Assembly: GCA_964194865.1 (NCBI GenBank)
Contig: CAXMOC010000141.1
Location: 8,370-72,369 of the forward strand
DNA from: an uncultured Opitutales bacterium
GTDB taxonomy: Bacteria; Myxococcota_A; UBA9160; SMWR01
DNA length: 64,000 nt
Direction: 5' to 3'
Shown here: one piece after another, positions 37,302 to 53,884 of the stretch
How positions within the stretch are numbered: position 1 is the stretch's first letter
Layout of the letters: the number at the start of each line of letters is the position of its first letter
Made by a program: the position numbers and the translations under genes
The notes under the pieces: model-generated
The model's database searches: none
What the model was told of the DNA's origin: nothing
The model's input: only the letters and a program-made list of their open reading frames with translations

Positions 37302-38456
37302 TCAAAGAACCCGCTGCTTCAAGTTCTCGCCAGACTCGTAGTAGTGCTCGACGCGCTTGAGCAGCTCTCGTACCCGACCGGGTATCTCGTCGCCCAGGGG
37401 CCAACGCGCCAATGCCACGCGCATGCGATCTTGCAACAGCTGGGCGTCGGGAAAATCTTCCCCCGCCACCGCATCGTCGACGTCGAGCCAATTCTGGGTC
37501 GCCGTCAAGGTCCTCGACAGACGGTCGGCGAGCTCGCTCATGCCCGGCGAATCGACAGGCGAGGTCGCCATCTGCTCACCGAGACCTCGCAACTGTTCGA
37601 GAGCCGCTTCCAGCGACTCGCGGAGGTCACCCTCGGTTTCGACGATTCCCCAGACGATTTCGTCGAAGCTACGGCGCAGCGGCTCATGGGAAATTTCTCT
37701 CAGCTGAAGCATGCGACCGATGGTCTCGCCGGATTCGGCCACCAGACCCCGGGTGGTGACTCGCAACCGGTAGACCTGATCCCCGTTGCGGGTCTCGACC
37801 TCGTCGTAGAGGAGGTCGCCGTCGGCATCGCTGGAAATGTTCAGAGCGGCGGCCGCTACCGCATCCAAACCGTGTGCGGCCAGCACCTCGGAGAGGGGAC
37901 GGCCCCGGATCACACGGGGAAGGGCGAGGTAGTCGCGAACTGGACGGCTCGCGGCCTGGATGATGCCGTCGGCATCCACCGCCAGCGTTCCGGTATCCAG
38001 CTGGTCCATCACCGACTCGAGGTAGAAGTTGGCGTGCTTCAAATCCCTGAGCAGGCGCTCGTTCTCGACGGTTAGCTCGTAGTGCTCCACGGCTCGCTTC
38101 ATCACCTGCTTGAGCTGAGAGGGCTCCCAGGGCTTCGTGATGTACGCGTAGACGTGACCATCGTTGATCGCCGGGATGATCGCGTCCATGTCCGTGAATC
38201 CCGTGAGGATGATCCGCACGGTCGTCGGGTGACGCTGACACACTTCTGTGAGAAACTCGACGCCGCTCATCTGGGGCATGCGCTGGTCGGTCAGAACGAC
38301 TGCGACCGGTTGCTGCTCGTCCAGGAGGTCGAGCGCACGCCGCGCATCGCTGGAGGTAAGAACCTCGTACTCTTCCTCGAAGGTAAAGGTCATCGTCTCG
38401 AGGATTGCTTCCTCGTCGTCGACAACCAGGATTCGAGGCAACGGATTCTTCGTCAT
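37302..38456 (-). CDS. Response regulator REC-PAS with unrecognised helical C-terminal domain
   Basis: ILVVDDEE...LTDQRMP...LTG...TKPW; coiled linker; PAS (TLAVDADG); ATG at 38456 just after the DUF1232 stop. Confidence 0.8.
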   Translation of the reverse strand: MTKNPLPRILVVDDEEAILETMTFTFEEEYEVLTSSDARRALDLLDEQQPVAVVLTDQRMPQMSGVEFLTEVCQRHPTTVRIILTGFTDMDAIIPAINDGHVYAYITKPWEPSQLKQVMKRAVEHYELTVENERLLRDLKHANFYLESVMDQLDTGTLAVDADGIIQAASRPVRDYLALPRVIRGRPLSEVLAAHGLDAVAAAALNISSDADGDLLYDEVETRNGDQVYRLRVTTRGLVAESGETIGRMLQLREISHEPLRRSFDEIVWGIVETEGDLRESLEAALEQLRGLGEQMATSPVDSPGMSELADRLSRTLTATQNWLDVDDAVAGEDFPDAQLLQDRMRVALARWPLGDEIPGRVRELLKRVEHYYESGENLKQRVL

Positions 38457-38484
38457 CGCGTCGTCGAGGGCGGTCGCGTCACTC

Positions 38485-39054
38485 CTACCAGCCGCCGCGA
38501 CCGGCCGCCTGCTTCTTTTCGGCCTCCTTGGCCTCACGTTTGGCGATTTCACCCCGGATCTTCTTGCGATCGTTCTCGAGCCTGCGGTTCAACCGCTCCC
38601 GGCCCGGGTCCGCCCAGGGGCGCTGCTCGGAGATGTCACGCGACTTCTTGAACTTGCGGTAGCCCCAGAGTTCGTGGCGAAACTCTTCCTCGATGAACTT
38701 CACCATGATGGCATCGTCGAGAAAACCAAGACCCGGAACGTGGTCGGGGATCAGATCTTCTGGATTCGAGAAATATGCGACGCCGGCGAGCACCTCGTTC
38801 CGAACCCTCTGGGGTGCCGCGTATTCGTCGTCGACGATCAAATCCGTGAGGTCTTCCAATACGGCGATCGCCTCGAGGACGAATTGGGGAGTCTTCTTGG
38901 ACTCCCGGACCTGCGCAACGATCCCGCGCGCGTCGTTGACGATCGTCTCTGGGTCCTGAAGCTTCGCCCCCTGCTTCGCCTTTCGATACAGGTTGCGAAA
39001 ATAGTTGGCGTCATCCTCATCCAGGGTGAAGCTGACCTTGAACTTCGCCGACAT
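38485..39054 (-). CDS. YkvA/DUF1232 family protein
   Basis: YFSNPEDLIPDHVPGLGFLDD motif. Confidence 0.85.
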   Translation of the reverse strand: MSAKFKVSFTLDEDDANYFRNLYRKAKQGAKLQDPETIVNDARGIVAQVRESKKTPQFVLEAIAVLEDLTDLIVDDEYAAPQRVRNEVLAGVAYFSNPEDLIPDHVPGLGFLDDAIMVKFIEEEFRHELWGYRKFKKSRDISEQRPWADPGRERLNRRLENDRKKIRGEIAKREAKEAEKKQAAGRGGW

Positions 39055-46156: not shown

Positions 46157-46817
46157 TCTTGAGGCCCTCGGTCGCCGACGAGCGCGTCATCTTGAAGGTT
46201 CCATGCCGGCTGCCATCGCGCTCGAACGATCCGCTCATGCTGCCATCTTCGGACCCGATCACCGTCGTGGTATAGAGCGTCACCCCGTCGAGGTCTTCCG
46301 AGCGCTCGGAGCCGAGCACGTCTTCCCGCCGGAAGATCGGCCCCGTGTCGCCGGAGTCGATGTTCCAATGCTCGACGTAGCTGATCACCGAAGCCGAGGC
46401 GGCCGTATTCCTCGAGAACGACGCCCAGTTGCCATCCGAGTTCTTCAGCGTCTTGGATTTCATTCCCCGTTCGTTGACGGCGAGGCCATCCTTGATGTCT
46501 GCGAGCTGGCTCGGGCTGGGCTCCCAGAACTCCAGGACGCGGGAGCTGCGGCCAAGGGATCGATCGAAGCGGCCCGACTGGTCGTCGAAGACGACGATGG
46601 GGTAATCGGTCCAGCGCAGGCGGCTGCCCGTCTTCTCGAACACCCAGACCCGATCCTCCCAACGCTCGCGCTCGGGATGGGGTGCGTTGTCGTCCTTGTA
46701 ATGGACCAGTACGTGCCAGGTGCCCGCGAGGTCCGGCGAATCGCCTGAAACTGCCACTGGAGCAAACAGCGCGCTCGCCGCCAGCAGGCCCAGGGTGACG
46801 AGAAGTCGGGCGCTCAA
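46080..46817 (-). CDS. Hypothetical exported protein
   Basis: TTG overlapping the thyX TGA with GAGGTGGAG SD; signal peptide MSARLLVTLGLLAASALFAPVAVSG; beta-rich body. Confidence 0.7.
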   Translation of the reverse strand: MSARLLVTLGLLAASALFAPVAVSGDSPDLAGTWHVLVHYKDDNAPHPERERWEDRVWVFEKTGSRLRWTDYPIVVFDDQSGRFDRSLGRSSRVLEFWEPSPSQLADIKDGLAVNERGMKSKTLKNSDGNWASFSRNTAASASVISYVEHWNIDSGDTGPIFRREDVLGSERSEDLDGVTLYTTTVIGSEDGSMSGSFERDGSRHGTFKMTRSSATEGLKSDGKTPNEKANDRGRRALEALGYVD

Positions 46818-48349
46818 ATGGTTCGCTCCACCTCGGGAAAGGTTCTCCATACCGTTACTCCACAGAAGTGCGATCCCTCGGTGCAGCGCGGGCGGACGAC
46901 TCCGGTGCGCACGAAGCACGGTGGACCGACGTGTCGGATCAGACTTGGGTGAACGGCGCCCACTTGCTCGATCTCGTCCATTGAAGCGTTCCAGATCTCG
47001 CGTTGCGCGTTGAGGCAGGTTCGCATCGTCCACTTATGGATCAAGTCGAGCAAGCTGCCAGACTCGACGAAGCGAATCGCCACGGCGTTGGGAAGTGCGT
47101 AGAGCGCCAGCTCGGGCTCGACACCTGCGCCCAGCAGCTGTTCGCGCGCGTGCCAGGCCGCGCCGACGGCCTCGGTGAACAGGGCGTGGCAGCCGGGATC
47201 GTCGCGAATCAGCTCCGGCTCGACGACGTCCACCGTCGCCGGAACCGTTCGCGAAAGCAGCGGGCGGGAGCCGGGCACGGTGCGGTGGCGTTGATCCTGG
47301 GAATCCGCGGTGTGTGAGAGCTTCTTTCTGAAGGTGTAGTGCGCGTGGGTCAGGGCGCGCATGATGGGCGCGTGGGTCGAAATGTTCAGCGTATCGACCC
47401 GATAGGAGTTCTGAGACGGATCGAGCACCAGCTCCAGCGCGGCGTCATCCTCCAGCTCATAACGACCCAGCACGTGGCGAACCGCGTCGGCGACCACTTC
47501 CGGACCCCGGGCGCTGTAGTCGATCAGGCGGGAGCAGCGACCGTCGAGAAATTTGTCGAAGGACTCTGTGCCGGCGGGGTCGCCAACTCCGGGCTCCGCG
47601 AGTTGCCGCTCGACCACCTCGTCCGCTTCTCGCGCCGGCTCGCCGACGCGAGCGAAGAAGTCGGGATCGATGCGTTCGACCTCGGCAACCATCCGCCCCA
47701 CCACGTCGGCTGCCTCGCGCGGAACGTCGCTGGCCGACACCATCCGGCGCAGGCGGTGGAGCACGATCCCCGAGACGGTGTAGACCATCGCCGTGTGGCA
47801 GGCGATCGGGATCACGTAGCGAGCAGTCTCGATCGCGCGCTTCTCCGCTTCACGCGCGATGCTCTTGCCAAAGGCAGTCGATTTGCGCGCCGACAGACGC
47901 CACAGGTCCGAGAGGATTCGATACGTCAAGGGTGTCAGACGTTCGGTCAGCTCACGGTAGGCTTGCCAGGAACGCTCGATGGAAGCCTCGAGTATCTCGC
48001 GCGCCCGACCCTCGAGCTTGGGGGGAACGTGTGCGGTCACCTCGTCGAGCTTCACGTAGCGTTGGCTCTGCTGCTCCGTGTTGTAGAACGGAAATCCATG
48101 CAGAAACGACCACACGAGCTGGCGGGAGATACCCGAGAGTGCAAACTCGAATGTGGCGTGCTGATACACCGTGTGGTGACCACCGTCGTAAGTCAGAGGA
48201 CCGATGCTTTGACGTTGGCGCTCGGTGATTTCTTCGGGGTCGATGACCCTGGACGAGTAACAGGTGCGCGCCGCCGAGATGGCGTCGTCGTAGGGACGAT
48301 CGAACCAGCTGCGCAGGCGGACATCCGGTCCGCGATCGATGATTGCCAC
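46814..48349 (-). CDS. thyX: FAD-dependent thymidylate synthase with two tandem ThyX domains
   Basis: AARTCYS, GHHTVYQH...F...GISR, EQQSQRY, ARYVIP; second repeat LTHAHYTF, QRHR, YALPNA, RTCLNAQREI. Confidence 0.85.
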   Translation of the reverse strand: MAIIDRGPDVRLRSWFDRPYDDAISAARTCYSSRVIDPEEITERQRQSIGPLTYDGGHHTVYQHATFEFALSGISRQLVWSFLHGFPFYNTEQQSQRYVKLDEVTAHVPPKLEGRAREILEASIERSWQAYRELTERLTPLTYRILSDLWRLSARKSTAFGKSIAREAEKRAIETARYVIPIACHTAMVYTVSGIVLHRLRRMVSASDVPREAADVVGRMVAEVERIDPDFFARVGEPAREADEVVERQLAEPGVGDPAGTESFDKFLDGRCSRLIDYSARGPEVVADAVRHVLGRYELEDDAALELVLDPSQNSYRVDTLNISTHAPIMRALTHAHYTFRKKLSHTADSQDQRHRTVPGSRPLLSRTVPATVDVVEPELIRDDPGCHALFTEAVGAAWHAREQLLGAGVEPELALYALPNAVAIRFVESGSLLDLIHKWTMRTCLNAQREIWNASMDEIEQVGAVHPSLIRHVGPPCFVRTGVVRPRCTEGSHFCGVTVWRTFPEVERTI

Positions 48350-48400: not shown

Positions 48401-48437
48401 TTTCCAAAGATGGGAAATTGTTTTCCCAATCTGAAAG
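48401..48437. promoter_or_regulatory. Tandem imperfect palindromes TTTCC-N7-GGAAA and TTTTC-N7-GAAAG (candidate upstream activator sites)
   Basis: AT-rich sites 20 bp apart, ~110-150 bp upstream of a sigma54 promoter. Confidence 0.5.
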
Positions 48438-48547: not shown

Positions 48548-48562
48548 TGGCACGGCGCTTGC
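48548..48562 (+). promoter_or_regulatory. sigma54 (-24/-12) promoter
   Basis: TGGCACG-GCGC-TTGC matches the TGGCACG-N4-TTGC consensus; intergenic, upstream of 48688. Confidence 0.8.
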
Positions 48563-48687: not shown

Positions 48688-50607
48688 ATGATCACACTCT
48701 GGATCGTCCACCGCGATTCGCGAATGCGCTCGGCACTGGCCCGGGTAGCGGCAGCCCCCGAGAGCGCAATCTCGGGCCCTCCGGGGGATCCGCTGTTTCT
48801 GACGGCGCCCGCGGCGGACGTCGTGGTGTTGGGCCTGGCCGGCGATCTCGAGGCCGAGCTGGAGTTCGCACACCAGACCGCCTCCCGCCTGCGCGACGCC
48901 CGCTGGATCCTCGTGCCCGAGCGCCGCGACTCGGCGGCCGTGCAAGCGCTCTTCGACTCCATCGACGCGACGATCCTGAGCTATCCGCCCGACGCACGCA
49001 CGCTGCGCGCAGAGATCCACGCCACGGACCTGCGCGGTACCGGCGGACGCCTGGCCCTCTCGGAGCGGCCGTCGCGCGATCTACTCGCCGAGCGCTTCGC
49101 CCGTTGGTTCGCGGACCTCGAGCTACCCGAGTTAATGCGCGCCCTCGACCCGCGTCTGTGGGACGTGCCGTTGTTGATTGCCGGCGAAACGGGAACCGGG
49201 CGCGGCTTGATGGCCCAGTACGTTCACGTCTTCGGGCCCGGGGCAGCGGGCGAGCTCGCGCACGTCGTCTGCCAAGCCGGGATGTCGGCCGCCGACCTGG
49301 ATCGGGCGCTGAGCGAGGCAGCTCGAGAGGCAACAGCAGCGCGTACGGTCTGGTTGGAGGACGTCGATTCGCTTCCCCTCGCCAGCCAGCGGCGACTGGC
49401 GCGCTGGCTCGAGCTGGGCCCGCCGGCCGGAATGCGGCGGACGCGGATCGGACGCTGGATCGGAACGATTTCAGACGCCCCGGAGTTGGGCCCGCAAGGC
49501 AGCCTGGACCCGGGTCTGCGCGATCGCCTGAGCGGAATCTCTCTGCGAATCCCGCCGCTGCGCCAGCGCACCCAGCTGATCGCCCCGCTCGCCAACCAGA
49601 CCGCGCTGGCCTGGTGTAGCGCCCACCGAGAGCTACCGCGCCGCTTTGGAGAAGACGCGATCACGGTGCTCGAGGAGTATCCCTGGCCCGGCAACCTGCA
49701 AGAGTTCGAGGCGGTCGTGCTGCAGACGCTCGTCGCAGGCTCGGCCGACCCGATTCGCGCCGACGATCTTCAGTACGACGGGACGGCCTTCGCGCCCCTC
49801 GACGCCAACGCATTCGGCGTGTTGATCGACTCGGACGAGGCTGCGGCCAGCAATCCGGCGGCGGTACCCGCAACGGCGGTCGAACGCAGCGCAGATGCCG
49901 CGCAACCGGCCGAGACCGGCCGGCCCAAAGCCGCGCCCACGACAGCGCCGCTCCGGGACAGCCCCCTGCAGCCGTTGGCAGCCGCGATCGCTCACGAGGT
50001 GCGCAACCCACTTTCGACGATCCGGACCTTCGCCGAGCTGCTACCCGAACGCTACGACGATCCCGAATTCCGCTCTCGGTTCAGTGAGCTGGTCGGGCAG
50101 GATGCTCTGCGGATCGAATCCGTCGTGGCCCGACTGGTGGAGCTGGCAGCGCTCGGCCGCGAACCGCCGAGCCCCGTGGACATCTCGGCTCTGCTGGACG
50201 AGCTGCTCGACACGCATCGGGAGCTCATCCACAGCCGTGGCCTGCTGGTTCTCAGGGAGCTCGACGCGCAGCCCCCCCACGCCTTGGGCGACGCCGGACA
50301 GTTGGGCTTCGCGCTCGAGTCCTTGCTGGCCAGATCGCTGCGGCTCGCGCCGGAGGGGGGCGAGGTCTACATCGCTTCTCGGCATCACCGCACGGGCTTG
50401 CGCGGCGGACCGGCGATCCGGGTCCTGGTTCGCTTCGGTGAGCGAGGCCAGCTGGCGTCACGGCCGCGCGTAGCTGGTACCTCGGCGGCGGAGAACGCGA
50501 TGGAGTTCGCGATCGCTCAGGCGATCATTCGCGCCCAGGGCGGGAGCTTCGCGATCGACGCGGGGGAAGGGGGCGAGACGGTGGTACTGCTAGACATCCC
50601 CGCTTGA
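48688..50607 (+). CDS. Chimeric signalling protein: pseudo-receiver, degenerate sigma54-type AAA+, HisKA, degenerate HATPase
   Basis: GETGTGR, WLEDVD, IPPLRQR, YPWPGNLQE (AAA+); AHEVRNPL (H-box); N/G boxes eroded. Confidence 0.8.
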   Translation: MITLWIVHRDSRMRSALARVAAAPESAISGPPGDPLFLTAPAADVVVLGLAGDLEAELEFAHQTASRLRDARWILVPERRDSAAVQALFDSIDATILSYPPDARTLRAEIHATDLRGTGGRLALSERPSRDLLAERFARWFADLELPELMRALDPRLWDVPLLIAGETGTGRGLMAQYVHVFGPGAAGELAHVVCQAGMSAADLDRALSEAAREATAARTVWLEDVDSLPLASQRRLARWLELGPPAGMRRTRIGRWIGTISDAPELGPQGSLDPGLRDRLSGISLRIPPLRQRTQLIAPLANQTALAWCSAHRELPRRFGEDAITVLEEYPWPGNLQEFEAVVLQTLVAGSADPIRADDLQYDGTAFAPLDANAFGVLIDSDEAAASNPAAVPATAVERSADAAQPAETGRPKAAPTTAPLRDSPLQPLAAAIAHEVRNPLSTIRTFAELLPERYDDPEFRSRFSELVGQDALRIESVVARLVELAALGREPPSPVDISALLDELLDTHRELIHSRGLLVLRELDAQPPHALGDAGQLGFALESLLARSLRLAPEGGEVYIASRHHRTGLRGGPAIRVLVRFGERGQLASRPRVAGTSAAENAMEFAIAQAIIRAQGGSFAIDAGEGGETVVLLDIPA

Positions 50608-50632: not shown

Positions 50633-52009
50633 ATGGCCCGCCTGCTGGTGGTGGACGACGAGCCGGGCGTGCGCGAATCGCTGCGCATGCTCTTCAAGGA
50701 CGATTGCGAAGTCGTCACCGCCGCCTCGGTGGACGAGGCGACGCAGCTTCTCGCCAGCTCGCAGCCCGATCTGATGCTGCTGGATCTAGTGATGCCAGGC
50801 CGTGGCGGATTGGATCTCCTCGCCGACGTCTCCGAGCTGCTCGATCCCCCGCTGGTGGTGGTGCTGACGGCCACCCGGACGGTGGCCACCGCGGTGGAGG
50901 CCATGAAACGGGGCGCGGTCGATTACGTCACCAAGCCCTTCGAGGTGGAGGCACTGCGCCTCAAGGTTCGACAGCTGCTGGAACGGCGAGCACTCGAGCG
51001 CGAAGTCATCCAGCTGCGGGCCCAGGTGGACGACCGCGAGCGGCTGGGCGGGCTGGTCGGCCGCAGTCCACCGATGCAGCAGCTGTTTCACAAGATTCGT
51101 CGGGTCGCCAGCTCCAAGGCCACCGTCTTGCTCCGCGGCGAGAGCGGGAGCGGCAAGGAGCTGGCCGCCCGGGCCATCCACGACCTTGGCGACCGCGCCG
51201 ACGAAGCCTATGTGGCGGTCAATTGTGCTGCGATTCCCGACAACCTGATCGAGAGCGAGCTGTTCGGCCACGAGCGCGGAGCGTTCACGGATGCACGCGA
51301 GCGCAGGATCGGAAAGTTCGAGGCGGCCTCCGGCGGGACGCTTTTTCTCGACGAGGTCGGCGAGTTGGCGGTCTCCGTCCAGGCCAAGCTGCTGCGTGCC
51401 CTTCAAGAGCTGCAGATCGAGCGGCTGGGAGGATCCGCTCCGATCCAGGTGGATGTGCGCGTAATCGCCGCGACGAATCGCGATCTCGAGAGCGACGTAT
51501 CGAACGGCCGCTTTCGCTCCGACCTCTTCTACCGCATCAACGTGGTCCCGATCGAGCTGCCCTCCCTCGCTGCTAGGCGCGAAGACATCGCGCGGCTGGC
51601 GGACCATTTCCTGGCCCAAGCGCGCTCCCAGGCCAACCGCGGCCCCAGCAGCGTCTCTCGCGAGGCGATCACCCTGCTGGAGCGCTACTCCTGGCCCGGC
51701 AACGTCCGCGAGCTGGAGAACGCCATCGAGCACGGCGTCGCCCTCGCGGAGGGCGAGGTACTCGGCATCGACGACCTGCCTCCCGCAATCGCTCGCGCGG
51801 GAGCCGTAGAGACCCTGCGCGACGCGGTTCGGGCGGGCAGCCTGGGCTTCGAGGAGGCGGTGGGCAACTTCGAGCGCCAGCTGATCGTGGAGACCCTCGA
51901 ACGCTGCGACTGGAACCAAACCCGCGCGGCCGAGCAGCTGCAAACCACTCGGCGCGCCTTGAAGCTCAAAATGGACCGCTACAGCCTCGGTAAGCCCGGC
52001 GAAGACTAG
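50633..52009 (+). CDS. NtrC-family sigma54-dependent response regulator
   Basis: REC LVVDDE...[44 protein letters not shown], Fis-type HTH NQTRAA. Confidence 0.95.
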
Positions 52010-52040
52010 ACCCCGTCTGAGCGCCGTCCGCCCGAGCTGG

Positions 52041-52124
52041 GTGTTCTCATTCGAACACTAAAATTTATCTAACTAAATCAAACAAATAGATCGATAATTG
52101 CGTATCGACGTTCCATTCGGAACG
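52041..52124. promoter_or_regulatory. Palindromic candidate enhancer sites flanking an AT-rich tract
   Basis: GTGTTC-N6-GAACAC (52041-52058), TCGATA-N6-TATCGA (52091-52108), CGTTC-N6-GAACG (52109-52124). Confidence 0.55.
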
Positions 52125-52222: not shown

Positions 52223-52237
52223 TGGCACGTCACTTGC
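52223..52237 (+). promoter_or_regulatory. sigma54 (-24/-12) promoter
   Basis: TGGCACG-TCAC-TTGC matches consensus, ~45 nt upstream of the HD-GYP GTG. Confidence 0.82.
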
Positions 52238-52280: not shown

Positions 52281-53483
52281 GTGAGTTACGGAGAAACCAA
52301 GATCTTGATCGTGGACGACGAGCAGGGGCCGCGCGACTCGCTGCGGATGATCCTCTCCCCGGAGCATCACGTACTCCAGGCGAGCAGCGGAATCGAGGCC
52401 ATCGAGTGCTTGAGACGCGAGCCGGTAGATCTGATGACATTGGATCTGCACATGCCCGGAATGAACGGCCAGCAGCTGCTGCGGACCGTGCGAAACGAGT
52501 TCCCCCAGGTCGAGATCGTCATCATCACCGGCTGTGGATCGGTGGAGAGCGCCGCCGAAGGCATTCGATTCGGCGTCTGTGACTATCTCCAGAAGCCCTT
52601 CGACGTGGTCCAGGTCAGCGCGGCCGTCGAGCGTGCGCTCGCCCGCCAGCGGGCGCGGGGGCGCCTGACCTCCTTCCTGGAACAGCTCGGTGAGGCGGTG
52701 GGCCGCGAACGCGACGCCTTGGCGATTCTCGACGACGTTCATCGCAGCGGCAAGGTTCGCGCGCGGGTCAGCGGGCTGTTCGAGGAGTGCGGCGGGCGCG
52801 CGGAGCTGTCGACCGGGGCGCTCGATCGTCCCCGCACCAGCGAGTTTCTCGAAGTGCTGGCAGAGACCATCGAGATCAAGGATCGCTACATGCGCGGGCA
52901 CGCTCGGCGGGTGGCGTTCTACGCCAGCCTGATGGCCGAGCGCTTGTCGCTCGCCTCCGAGGAGCTCGAATCCGTCCGCTTCGCGGCGTTTCTTCACGAC
53001 CTGGGCAAGGTGGGTGTTCCGACGGACCTGCTGCTGCGAGCTGGAGCGCTCGACCCGAGCGAGCGCAGCCTGGTGGAGCAACATCCCGAGATCGGCCAAC
53101 GGCTGCTCGAGCCCCTCGCCATTCCCTCGGCGATTTCGTCGGCGGTCCGACACCACCACGAGTGGTGGGACGGAACCGGTTATCCGGATGGACTCTCGGG
53201 CGAGAAGATCCCCCTGGCCGCGCGGATCATCGGCGTGGTCGACGCCTTCGACGCCATGAGCTCGGACCGGCCTTATCGCCGGGCGCTGGATCGCGCGCTG
53301 GTCAGCGACGAGCTGCGGCGTTTCAGCGGCATCCAGTTCGATCCTGTCATCGCGAAGGAGTTTCTCAGCGTGCTCGAATCGGGCGCGTGTGACGTCGATC
53401 CCGAAACCGTGGCGGACGCAGTCGCAGATGTGCGCAGCCCCGCCCCCTCGAACCGCCCCGCGGCGGGCATAGGAGTTGGATGA
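52281..53483 (+). CDS. Response regulator with HD-GYP phosphodiesterase domain
   Basis: REC ILIVDDE...LDLHMP...QKPF; GHARRV, HDLGK, HHEWWDGTGYPDGL, DAFDAM, RPYR; GTG start downstream of the promoter. Confidence 0.93.
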   Translation: MSYGETKILIVDDEQGPRDSLRMILSPEHHVLQASSGIEAIECLRREPVDLMTLDLHMPGMNGQQLLRTVRNEFPQVEIVIITGCGSVESAAEGIRFGVCDYLQKPFDVVQVSAAVERALARQRARGRLTSFLEQLGEAVGRERDALAILDDVHRSGKVRARVSGLFEECGGRAELSTGALDRPRTSEFLEVLAETIEIKDRYMRGHARRVAFYASLMAERLSLASEELESVRFAAFLHDLGKVGVPTDLLLRAGALDPSERSLVEQHPEIGQRLLEPLAIPSAISSAVRHHHEWWDGTGYPDGLSGEKIPLAARIIGVVDAFDAMSSDRPYRRALDRALVSDELRRFSGIQFDPVIAKEFLSVLESGACDVDPETVADAVADVRSPAPSNRPAAGIGVG

Positions 53484-53884
53484 TGGCTAGCGCGTTGAAG
53501 GTCGATTCGAATCACAGGGGACTCACTGAGCCGCGCCTGGCCCCGGCATTCTCGACGATCCGCCGAGAGCCCCGGACCAACGAGGTGCGAAGCGCCGAGT
53601 ACACGCCCTTCCCGCGAGTCTCCAGCGACCAGAATCCCCGACTGGGATTTACCCGCGACATATCCGCCTTGGGGATGTGTCTGGGCGTCGACAGGCCCGA
53701 GCCGATCGGCTCGCTGCTGCGCGTCGAGGTTCGTCGGATCGATGGGGCATCGATGGGAGCGACCGTCGGCCGCGTGGTGTGGTGCTCGTCCGCCCATGCC
53801 GGCCGCTTCTGGCTGGGGCTCGACCTGATGTGCGAGATCAACGCCCCGCGCATCGGCGTCCGGGCATCCGCCAGCGAGACCTAG
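53480..53884 (+). CDS. PilZ domain protein
   Basis: RxxxR (RREPR) and DxSxxG (DISALG) motifs, GRVVW...GL; overlaps the HD-GYP stop. Confidence 0.8.
   Translation: MMASALKVDSNHRGLTEPRLAPAFSTIRREPRTNEVRSAEYTPFPRVSSDQNPRLGFTRDISALGMCLGVDRPEPIGSLLRVEVRRIDGASMGATVGRVVWCSSAHAGRFWLGLDLMCEINAPRIGVRASASET

Follow-up and report, generated by a model that had tools for sequence, protein, structure and literature searches.

Domain organization of gene X

Gene X (48688-50607, + strand) raises the question of what function is left to a protein in which a receiver, a sigma54-activator ATPase and a kinase catalytic domain are all degenerate and a phosphorylatable histidine is retained. It lies in the window, i.e., the whole stretch of 64,000 nucleotides that was analysed, and encodes 639 amino acids in one uninterrupted frame, as the earlier note had claimed; all the motifs quoted in that note are found in its sequence. 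The protein comprises a pseudo-receiver, a pseudo-AAA+ domain of the bEBP type, a linker, a DHp hairpin carrying His436 and a pseudo-catalytic domain, and its stop codon is separated by 25 nt from the start of an NtrC gene (50633). The Pfam matches in X are only Sigma54_activat, Sigma54_activat_2, AAA_lid_14 and HisKA, with none to Response_reg, HTH_8 or HATPase_c at E<=1, and no PAS domain was detected.

The AlphaFold2 model of X, obtained with 103 homologues as input (pLDDT 85), contains in order a receiver-type N-terminal domain, an AAA+ domain, a disordered segment (376-424), a DHp hairpin and a kinase catalytic fold. The AAA+ domain superposes on that of NtrC1 (3m0e; Z 19.6, rmsd 2.8, 221 aligned), indicating that a bEBP-type fold is present, and the catalytic fold on that of ThkA (3a0z; Z 17.4, rmsd 2.1, 128 aligned). 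No solved structure covering both halves of X was found, and a fixed contact between the halves was not seen in a second fold, that of a member from Desulfobacterota (pTM 0.45).

Degeneration of the individual domains

In the pseudo-receiver (residues 1-117; 48688-49038, +), the acidic pocket and the phospho-Asp are replaced, with His-Arg at positions 8-9 and Gly at position 49. This last position is Gly or Ala in 69 of the 78 NtrC-positive genomes and Gly in 44 of the 47 filled rows of the Desulfobacterota/Binatota group, where Response_reg still matches 23 of 34 members. Ahead of the AAA+ domain, alignment and model delimit an Arg/aromatic-rich, family-specific helix (residues 124-156; 49057-49155, +), in which L124, R136, D143 and P155 are invariant in 118 homologues. 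As a separate observation, this helix may hold a c-di-GMP site, given that the gene cassette carries HD and PilZ genes.

The pseudo-AAA+ domain (residues 157-372; 49156-49803, +) retains the P-loop glycines and the lid, and has lost the Walker A Lys, the Walker B Asp-Glu, the GAFTGA loop and the first Arg finger. The position of the Walker A Lys is occupied by Arg in 97 and by Lys in 17 of the 118 full-length homologues; among the 78 NtrC-positive genomes this residue is Arg in 76, and Glu replaces the Walker B Asp in 52. A GAFTGA-type loop is found in none of the 118 full-length homologues and in none of the 58 from Desulfobacterota/Binatota. The first Arg finger is absent across the family, where Asp or Glu is found instead; the second is present in this protein (R280), yet in only 7 of the 118 homologues, and the sensor-II Arg is Gln in the X of this genome. 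According to fold matches, the receiver-AAA+ fold without the sigma54-contact loop is shared with the GAFTGA-less EBPs NtrX, VpsR and Caulobacter NtrC. These proteins retain a DNA-binding HTH, whereas X carries a kinase core instead, and the place of the HTH is occupied by a disordered Ala/Pro linker (residues 373-423; 49804-49956, +; pLDDT<50).

The DHp hairpin (residues 424-490; 49957-50157, +; HisKA 4e-10) contains His436 (codon 49993-49995) and, at H+4, Asn440 (codon 50005-50007), which are present in 116 and 112, respectively, of the 118 full-length homologues. It is followed by a pseudo-catalytic domain of the GHKL fold (residues 491-639; 50158-50604, +), for which the earlier note had described erosion of the N, G1 and G2 boxes. 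The alignment bears this out: the N-box Asn of intact kinases is Arg or Lys in 77 and the G1 Asp is Phe, Tyr or His in 97 of 104 aligned homologues, and a G2 box is found in none of the 118 full-length ones, leaving X without the Mg-ATP-binding motifs of this fold. HATPase_c matches no member in sets of 34 and 9. New charged residues have appeared on the same domain, with E524, R578 and R582 conserved in 103, 103 and 104 of 104. A DHp bearing a histidine next to a catalytic fold without ATP motifs is the arrangement of dimeric histidine phosphotransferases such as ChpT and Spo0B, which are small stand-alone proteins. Nonetheless, the corresponding Pfam families (HPTransfase and Spo0B) do not match X at E<=1, nor 34 and 8 further members at E<=0.01.

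Operon and promoters

The earlier note placed X in the position of the sensor kinase. It does directly precede NtrC, but in the fuller operon of the family (HK1-X-NtrC-receiver) it stands in the middle, preceded by an intact kinase, HK1. The two genes adjoin, often overlapping, in 18 of 20 loci of the Desulfobacterota group; in this genome HK1 is found on another contig, away from X, and is truncated there by the end of the contig. HK1 has every catalytic box, a DHp near-identical to that of X and no receiver of its own. The NtrC-family activator (50633-52009, +) is intact, with a receiver carrying Asp51, a GAFTDA loop and an HTH, and is the likely target of His436. Downstream are a protein with Response_reg and HD_5 domains (REC-HD; 52281-53483, +, its start placed at the GTG after the promoter) and a PilZ-domain protein (53480-53884, +; PilZ 1.4e-6), which by synteny ends the cassette in many genomes. 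REC-HD, which belongs to the cassette in Desulfobacterota, is likely of the c-di-GMP phosphodiesterase type, and may share the kinase of NtrC because the first helices of their receivers are alike.

Exact matches to the sigma54 -24/-12 element occur twice in the window, versus 0.10 expected. The first (48548-48562, +) precedes the X-NtrC operon, and 88 of 111 loci have such an element upstream of X, versus 2 of 463 coding windows. The second (52223-52237, +) lies upstream of REC-HD, as in 25 of 40 orthologues. About 120 nt upstream of the first element there is an enhancer-like dyad of the GGGAAA-N4-TTTTCCC type (48410-48429, +), a predicted activator binding site that is the top-scoring one genome-wide. 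Its matrix matches before X in 72 of 97 loci of the same order, on which it was trained, and in 0 of 14 of the other order; before REC-HD the dyad is found in only 3 of 40 orthologues. Another activator is preceded by tandem copies (13 of 15 orthologues). The enhancer of X points to an activator other than NtrC, one controlling surface-protein genes, and a candidate sigma54 cascade would run from activator B (G000:C26:35540-36961) to X-NtrC and then to REC-HD-PilZ, tying surface-protein genes to probable c-di-GMP turnover. As for expression, no more than 0.2 of the words were recovered in any of three runs, and one RNA library contained short contigs 99% like X, which is not proof of transcription.

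The PrsK/PrsR PEP-CTERM system was considered and rejected: NtrC and activator B reach 408 and 390 bits versus a cut-off of 502.6 and HK1 138 versus 300, and the enhancer found here is a motif different from the TTTACA box.

Co-occurrence of His436, NtrC and HK1

Among 108 genomes, all of them incomplete assemblies, His436 is retained in 78 of the 79 with an NtrC orthologue and lost in 25 of the 29 without. The exceptions are four genomes with the histidine and no NtrC (G005, G011, G073 and G116) and one with NtrC and Pro at position 436 (G080). Left out of this count were a duplicate (G003, of G077), split frames (G066 and G129), contig ends (G137, G140, G100, G118 and G014) and a second copy (G132b); four genomes examined later all fit the pattern. 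The absence of NtrC was checked genome-wide in 25 of the 29, where the best matches reach 42-48% versus 54-78% for orthologues. With the DHp left out of the tree, His436 and NtrC change state 8 and 10 times, and in 6 supported independent pairs the histidine moves with NtrC 5.2 times and never in the opposite way, a phylogenetic sign test that is not significant (median p 0.0625). Asn440 is invariant where NtrC is present (78 of 78) and in Desulfobacterota/Binatota (58 of 58), as expected for the Thr/Asn of phosphatases at H+4. At H+1, Glu or Asp is found in 71 of the 78 NtrC-positive genomes and Ala, Ser or Gln in 7, with Arg or Lys in other lineages.

HK1 follows the same distribution, being found by profile search in none of 22 NtrC-less genomes and in 0 of 32 of the NtrC-less order; it was also not matched in five NtrC-positive genomes (G070, G123, G127, G149 and G150; 76-97% complete). 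The histidine tracks NtrC and not REC-HD, since it is lost in two genomes with REC-HD (G001 and G002) and retained together with NtrC in genus g32, where REC-HD is not adjacent.

The remainder of the protein behaves differently. In one order, each of the 15 genomes examined has X and lacks NtrC. In family f1, conservation before and after the loss of NtrC goes from 0.88 to 0.85 for the pseudo-receiver, from 0.87 to 0.88 for the pseudo-AAA+ domain and from 0.85 to 0.83 for the pseudo-catalytic domain, and the docking face alone relaxes, from 0.85 to 0.69. In one NtrC-less lineage (G105) the DHp is wholly deleted and the remaining domains are present, and one Desulfobacterota group has NtrC and no receiver domain in X. 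Repeated natural loss of NtrC would in this way separate two functions of X, with HK1, NtrC and activator B as candidate partners.

The complex of an X(424-639) dimer with the NtrC receiver was modelled with a score of 0.62, which may reflect recall of solved kinase-receiver complexes, versus 0.09 for the best of three controls. The docking mark is reached by 116 of 157 solved pairs and by 2 of 215 mismatched pairs; at least 93% of the contacts recur between runs, with a partner pLDDT of at least 83. The search for specificity covariation between X and NtrC met an almost invariant first helix in NtrC.

Possible function of gene X

The explanation favoured here, to which about an even chance is given, is that X is a brake on the NtrC encoded behind it, stripping the phosphoryl group that is likely placed by the paralogous HK1. 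Judged by its sequence, X is neither a canonical autokinase nor a canonical sigma54 activator, and it is clear that His436/Asn440, NtrC and HK1 are retained and lost jointly; His436 likely serves the phospho-Asp of NtrC. X and HK1 would address one and the same receiver, given that the specificity residues of the two DHps hardly differ. Removal of the phosphoryl group may occur by Asn440-assisted hydrolysis, by back-transfer to His436, or by both; in CrdS, the H+1 Glu is needed for kinase activity only and the H+4 Asn for phosphatase activity only (PMC3510030). X and NtrC would be co-transcribed from the sigma54 promoter under another activator and, therefore, fresh NtrC would come with its antagonist. 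The body formed by the pseudo-receiver, AAA+ and catalytic domains, which persists after NtrC is lost, would have a second, NtrC-independent role, most likely as a protein-binding switch or scaffold.

Several points weigh against the brake. The direction of phosphoryl flow is not readable from sequence, and the near-strict conservation of the histidine suits a phospho-His more than pure hydrolysis, given that CrdS H371A retains most of its phosphatase activity, whereas PleC requires its histidine. The nearest analogue, PhyT, was first named a phosphatase and, in the account of PMC5898713, turned out to be a phosphotransferase without phosphatase activity. The phosphatase activity described for RedE requires ADP (PMC2755868), for which X has no binding motifs.

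Transfer in the activating direction, as in PhyT and ChpT, is a possible but rather doubtful alternative, in which a kinase would phosphorylate a donor receiver (e.g., REC-HD or that of a REC-kinase), and this His436 and then NtrC. It would suit the almost invariant histidine where NtrC is present, its presence in genomes without detected HK1, the second receiver of the cassette with its matching first helix, and a dispensable H+1 Glu, replaced in one Desulfobacterota clade by Arg, which gives the HRxxN motif reported for PhyT (PMC5898713). Nonetheless, a relay is not needed for NtrC activation because HK1, with all catalytic boxes and the docking residues of X, could phosphorylate NtrC directly; moreover, HK1 lacks its own receiver, and several lineages with NtrC and His436 have no adjacent REC-HD.

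Somewhat less probable is that X mimics NifL-NifA in one chain. The pseudo-catalytic domain would bind the AAA+ domain of an activator, and its own dead AAA+ domain would fill this site in cis as a switch, so that X would be a sigma54-induced feedback inhibitor of a class-wide activator driving surface-protein genes of the PEP-CTERM-like kind; the His-DHp would be a detachable module that couples X to HK1-NtrC. If true, this would explain why the X body, promoter and enhancer outlast NtrC, the invariance of the charged residues newly gained by the catalytic fold and the deletion of the DHp alone in one lineage. NifL of Azotobacter vinelandii is described as kinase-like without kinase activity and stoichiometric with its sigma54 activator, whose AAA+ domain is bound by its DH and GHKL domains (PMC12998190), and X has both module types in one chain. 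In the same account, the GHKL domain of NifL binds ADP/ATP, PAS-FAD senses redox and the AAA+ domain is the target; these motifs are absent from X, whose histidine follows a receiver-bearing target.

A split kinase of which X is one half is improbable; X would form a heterodimer with HK1 through the DHp helices, be phosphorylated at His436 in trans by HK1 and tune its output. Adjoining genes, near-identical DHps, the joint loss of HK1, NtrC and His436, and the prevalence of Glu/Asp at H+1 would agree with it, but this acidic residue, required for ATP-dependent phosphorylation of the histidine in CrdS and homologues, is missing in several NtrC-positive lineages, and His436 is retained where HK1 was not found.

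Equally improbable is the proposal of the earlier note that the dead AAA+ domain assembles into the NtrC ring as its dedicated, dominant-negative subunit, with the kinase half (de)phosphorylating the ring. The retained AAA+ fold, P-loop glycines and lid, the co-transcription with NtrC and family profiles that rank the adjacent NtrC over other activators are in line with it. Nonetheless, the inter-subunit site is made up of the Arg fingers and sensor II, most of which are gone, and the N-terminal half is equally conserved, and X still present, once NtrC is gone. The dead AAA+ domain is thus probably not a dedicated NtrC ring subunit, to which the lineages lacking the DHp or the receiver domain of X also point. 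The observations of the earlier note stand, and its interpretation is half right: action of the histidine on the adjacent NtrC is supported by their co-loss and by the modelled docking, whereas the dedicated modulator is not.

Comparison with known systems

The closest known systems are PhyT, ChpT, RedE and NifL, and none of them has a dead activator half. Like X, PhyT (formerly PhyP) of Sphingomonas melonis is described as kinase-derived, with a conserved DHp histidine, an H+4 Asn and a degenerate ATPase domain, as encoded at the locus of its target regulator, and as a negative regulator with an additional part in phosphoryl transfer; it differs in being membrane-anchored with a periplasmic domain and in serving PhyR/SdrG (PMC5898713). 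X is soluble, of the HisKA type and directed at a sigma54 activator, and carries the pseudo-receiver and pseudo-AAA+ domains. The same source treats ChpT (Caulobacter) and Spo0B (Bacillus) as degenerate kinases (PMC5898713); unlike them, X bears an H-box of the canonical HisKA form, copied from the kinase of its operon, and is joined in one chain to a dead activator.

RedE of Myxococcus xanthus is likewise a kinase-like protein that does not autophosphorylate, belonging to a cluster of several components that include receivers and a true kinase; its histidine accepts the phosphoryl group and the regulator is dephosphorylated (PMC2755868). As described there, it has a poor HisKA, a conserved HATPase, a need for ADP and no AAA+ half (PMC2755868), and X shows the reverse erosion. 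In DivL of Caulobacter the kinase core is reused for docking or sensing, and the His-less X copies of NtrC-less lineages resemble it; the account of DivL gives Tyr in place of His and no phosphatase activity (PMC4211667), whereas X here keeps His and the H+4 Asn.

Distribution, selection and origin

X is present in 115 of 151 genomes of its class, UBA9160, and in 35 of 401 of a wider phylum sample, and also in Desulfobacterota and Binatota, the outer range being a lower bound. Outside the linker, dN/dS is 0.08-0.29 (10 NtrC-positive pairs), and it stays well below 1 in every folded domain, which holds for most NtrC-less pairs too; for the linker it is 0.17-1.22 (17 pairs). That X is a decaying fusion or an assembly artefact without function, which the earlier note had set against its own reading and which the eroded catalytic motifs and three fetched copies that look split or frameshifted (G066, G129 and the NtrC of G365/L365) might suggest, is refuted by this spread, the purifying selection and the conserved promoter, and is hardly credible.

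X is thus a widespread pseudo-enzyme architecture that combines a single live histidine with three dead domains surrounding it and is near-core in its large, uncultured class. In the ESM Atlas it corresponds to two unnamed or automatically named clusters (Myxococcota and Binatota) at 0.98, with no characterised protein matching it, and no description of the architecture was found in the open-access literature. A metagenome scan with the outer X alignment returned mainly ordinary activators (25-38%), and one profile match (G020) was rejected as such.

X would have originated from a duplicated kinase-NtrC pair, by fusion of an NtrC copy that lost its HTH to a kinase copy that lost its sensor. 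The family offers a traceable path from a kinase to a His-retaining pseudokinase and on to a His-less, then DHp-less, scaffold. In the trees (FastTree and a quick IQ-TREE run), the source activator was not separated out by the AAA+ domain; the kinase half joins X to two cassette kinases of Kiritimatiellae/Verrucomicrobia only at 89 and on long branches, and places all X copies together (99).

Results and Discussion

Gene X (48688-50607, + strand) encodes a product of 639 aa and stops 25 nt 5' of an intact NtrC-type activator gene (NtrC, 50633-52009, + strand). Pfam recognizes in X sigma54-activator AAA+ parts, the AAA+ lid and HisKA, and nothing else; none of the NCBIfam models matched at its cut-off. 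The AlphaFold2 model (103 homologues; pLDDT 85, pTM 0.59) starts with a receiver-type domain, followed by a AAA+ domain of the sigma54-activator (bEBP) type; residues 376-424 are disordered, and beyond them come a DHp hairpin and the catalytic fold of a kinase. Every motif that an earlier note had quoted is present. In the alignment with intact kinases, the N-box Asn is replaced by Arg or Lys in 77/104 copies and the G1 Asp by Phe, Tyr or His in 97/104. The G2 box occurs in 0/118 and 1/58 copies, the sigma54-contact loop GAFTGA in 0/118 and 0/58, and membership tests place X outside the autokinases, the sigma54 activators and the receivers.

A protein search with X returned 654 matches. The alignment with X took in those among the best 120 listed that reach 600 aa, 117 in all; named relatives come for the most part from Myxococcota assemblies. 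X is present in 115 of the 151 genomes of the window's class (E<=1e-40), which we take to be UBA9160, and a profile search recovered it in four of five X-negative genomes retested. A second group, from Desulfobacterota and Binatota, was found in 35/401 genomes of a phylum sample. Outside the linker, dN/dS is in the purifying range both with NtrC (0.08-0.29, 10 pairs) and without it (0.16-0.52, 7 pairs). On sequence grounds, X is a real family, and the misassembly or decaying fusion that the earlier note had envisaged is excluded. Among the Desulfobacterota, some variants (L363-L366, L369-L374) have ~515 aa and lack the pseudo-receiver; one clade carries Arg at H+1, giving HRxxN, as in PhyT. 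One genome has an extra copy with a shifted His outside the cassette (L186, G132:C38:2827-4653).

The presence of the DHp histidine, His436, follows that of NtrC. Across 108 genomes both are found in 78, neither in 25, His alone in four and NtrC alone in one; absence of NtrC was checked genome-wide in 25/29 genomes and by locus alone in the other four. On the tree of the X N-terminal half, NtrC changes state 8 times and His 10 times, and in the six supported independent pairs His goes with NtrC 5.2 times and against it never, which is not significant (median p 0.0625). HK1, an intact paralogous kinase, was detected in none of 22 NtrC-less genomes tested, a count to be read beside the 5/11 NtrC-positive genomes retested in which it was missed as well. 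Asn440 (H+4) is kept in 78/78 copies with NtrC and Glu437 (H+1) is variable. After loss of NtrC in one family, conservation of the modelled docking face falls from 0.85 to 0.69, with no drop in the receiver, AAA+ and catalytic-fold domains. The DHp is deleted from X of G105, the remainder being kept, and shortened in G032 and G050; in an NtrC-less order the His-less DHp is under constraint (dN/dS 0.04-0.27). Given the co-loss of His436 and NtrC and the retention of the other domains, X has, on this comparative record, two separable functions.

In the Desulfobacterota/Binatota group, the gene order is HK1, X, NtrC in 18 of the 20 loci fetched, a count in which two HK1 genes are cut by contig ends and the order of L368 is taken from trees; of the exceptions, L362 stands alone and L375 has no visible HK1. 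As a rule, a receiver plus HD-domain gene (REC-HD) or a receiver-kinase gene follows 3' in these outer-group loci, and a ketosynthase-like gene lies 5' of the cassette in 14/20. The FabF-like ketosynthase gene stands directly 5' of HK1-X-NtrC or of a kinase-kinase-NtrC cassette (L356-L374, L041, L025; Desulfobacterota, Kiritimatiellae/Verrucomicrobia), a position that suggests a lipid-related input. An intact GAF-PAS kinase occupies the X slot in Kiritimatiellae/Verrucomicrobia. The DHp of X is a near-copy of that of HK1, and when activators of three outer-group genomes were scored with the X profile, the adjacent NtrC scored best; across the class, NtrC orthologues reach 270 bits versus 238 for those of activator B, another sigma54 activator. 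Because of this HK1-like DHp and the profile preference for NtrC, an origin of X from a duplicated kinase-NtrC pair by internal fusion would fit, short of proof by trees.

In the window's genome, HK1 is a soluble kinase with all boxes (L136, G000:C83:288-1100), its N-terminus cut near the contig start. It was detected in 81/151 class genomes; orthologues have ~400 aa with a GAF-like N-terminal part, which some have lost (G038), and the orthologue of G083 looks eroded. HK1 is the likely phosphodonor of NtrC.

Structure prediction of X with the NtrC protein, proposed in the earlier note, gave docking of the DHp on the receiver, with a score of 0.62 for the X(424-639) dimer and 0.09 for the best control; the mark used is reached by 116/157 solved pairs and 2/215 mismatched pairs. 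Between runs, at least 93% of contacts are the same, the partner has a pLDDT of at least 83, and the modelled contacts place X 436-451 and 461-472 against NtrC helix 1. Since kinase-receiver complexes have already been solved, the model shows a likeness to these, and not binding or specificity.

The most likely reading, with about even confidence, is that X would oppose HK1 at the NtrC phospho-Asp. In Myxococcus xanthus CrdS and three homologues (PMC3510030), the acid at H+1 contributes to the kinase reaction alone and the Asn at H+4 to the phosphatase reaction alone; X conserves a CrdS-type pattern (Asn440 kept, H+1 variable) and HK1 needs no relay, which argues for a brake on NtrC-P. That HK1 needs none also counts against the main rival, an activating phosphotransfer relay, which we consider about half as probable given that PhyT, of the same design, turned out to be a phosphotransferase (PMC5898713). 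It is doubtful that X is half of a split kinase with HK1. The earlier note had proposed a dedicated modulator co-assembling with the NtrC ring; its interpretation is supported in part, in that X is neither decaying nor misassembled, has no autokinase motifs and probably acts on the adjacent NtrC through its His, but a ring subunit fits less well and is equally doubtful, given that the X body stays conserved after NtrC loss. Apart from the proposed action on NtrC-P, the retained body could, on the boldest and rather less likely view, be an AAA+-binding switch, for which NifL is the model (PMC12998190).

In its likely mode of action X resembles the His-retaining pseudokinases ChpT, Spo0B and PhyT (PMC5898713), as well as RedE (PMC2755868) and the pseudokinase DivL (PMC4211667), but it lies outside the sequence families of all of these. 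No description of its architecture was found in the open-access literature searched. The new findings are the co-loss of His, NtrC and HK1, the retention of X independently of NtrC, the parent operon and the scheme of promoter control.

The window holds only two exact sigma54 elements, before X (48548-48562) and before REC-HD (52223-52237; gene 52281-53483). The former is found in 88/111 loci against a background of 2/463, including 19/28 loci without NtrC. An enhancer-like dyad (48410-48429) is conserved ~120-170 nt upstream, also in 11/14 NtrC-less loci of the same order, with a matrix trained on these loci; before REC-HD it is rare (3/40). Tandem dyads precede activator B in 13/15 orthologues. 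This class-wide activator (L377, G000:C26:35540-36961), which adjoins a carbamoyltransferase gene, was matched in 27/38 genomes searched, NtrC-less ones among them. In the window's genome the dyad recurs before genes for secreted proteins, PEP-CTERM-like ones among them, and for an ECF sigma factor (C17:2103-2975, C149:5375-6661, C76:21672, C287:13900, C223:1-555, C104:26818-27486), four of which have a strict sigma54 element too. These genes would form a regulon, whose dyad motif is unlike the PEP-CTERM box described in PMC1569441; activator B is a candidate for the master regulator that controls surface-protein genes. We infer from these elements that X-NtrC is under the control of activator B, and that REC-HD and the PilZ gene, which ends the cassette in many genomes, may be driven by NtrC.

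In the interval that separates NtrC from the second sigma54 element lies an AT-rich tract (52040-52100) that could be a site for a DNA-bending protein. Divergent from X lies a gene for a double-domain ThyX-family protein (46814-48349, - strand; 511 aa), 60-77% identical where present and missing from the locus in many genomes. The protein encoded at 37302-38552 (- strand) consists of a receiver, a weak PAS domain and a helical tail, with no output domain recognized.
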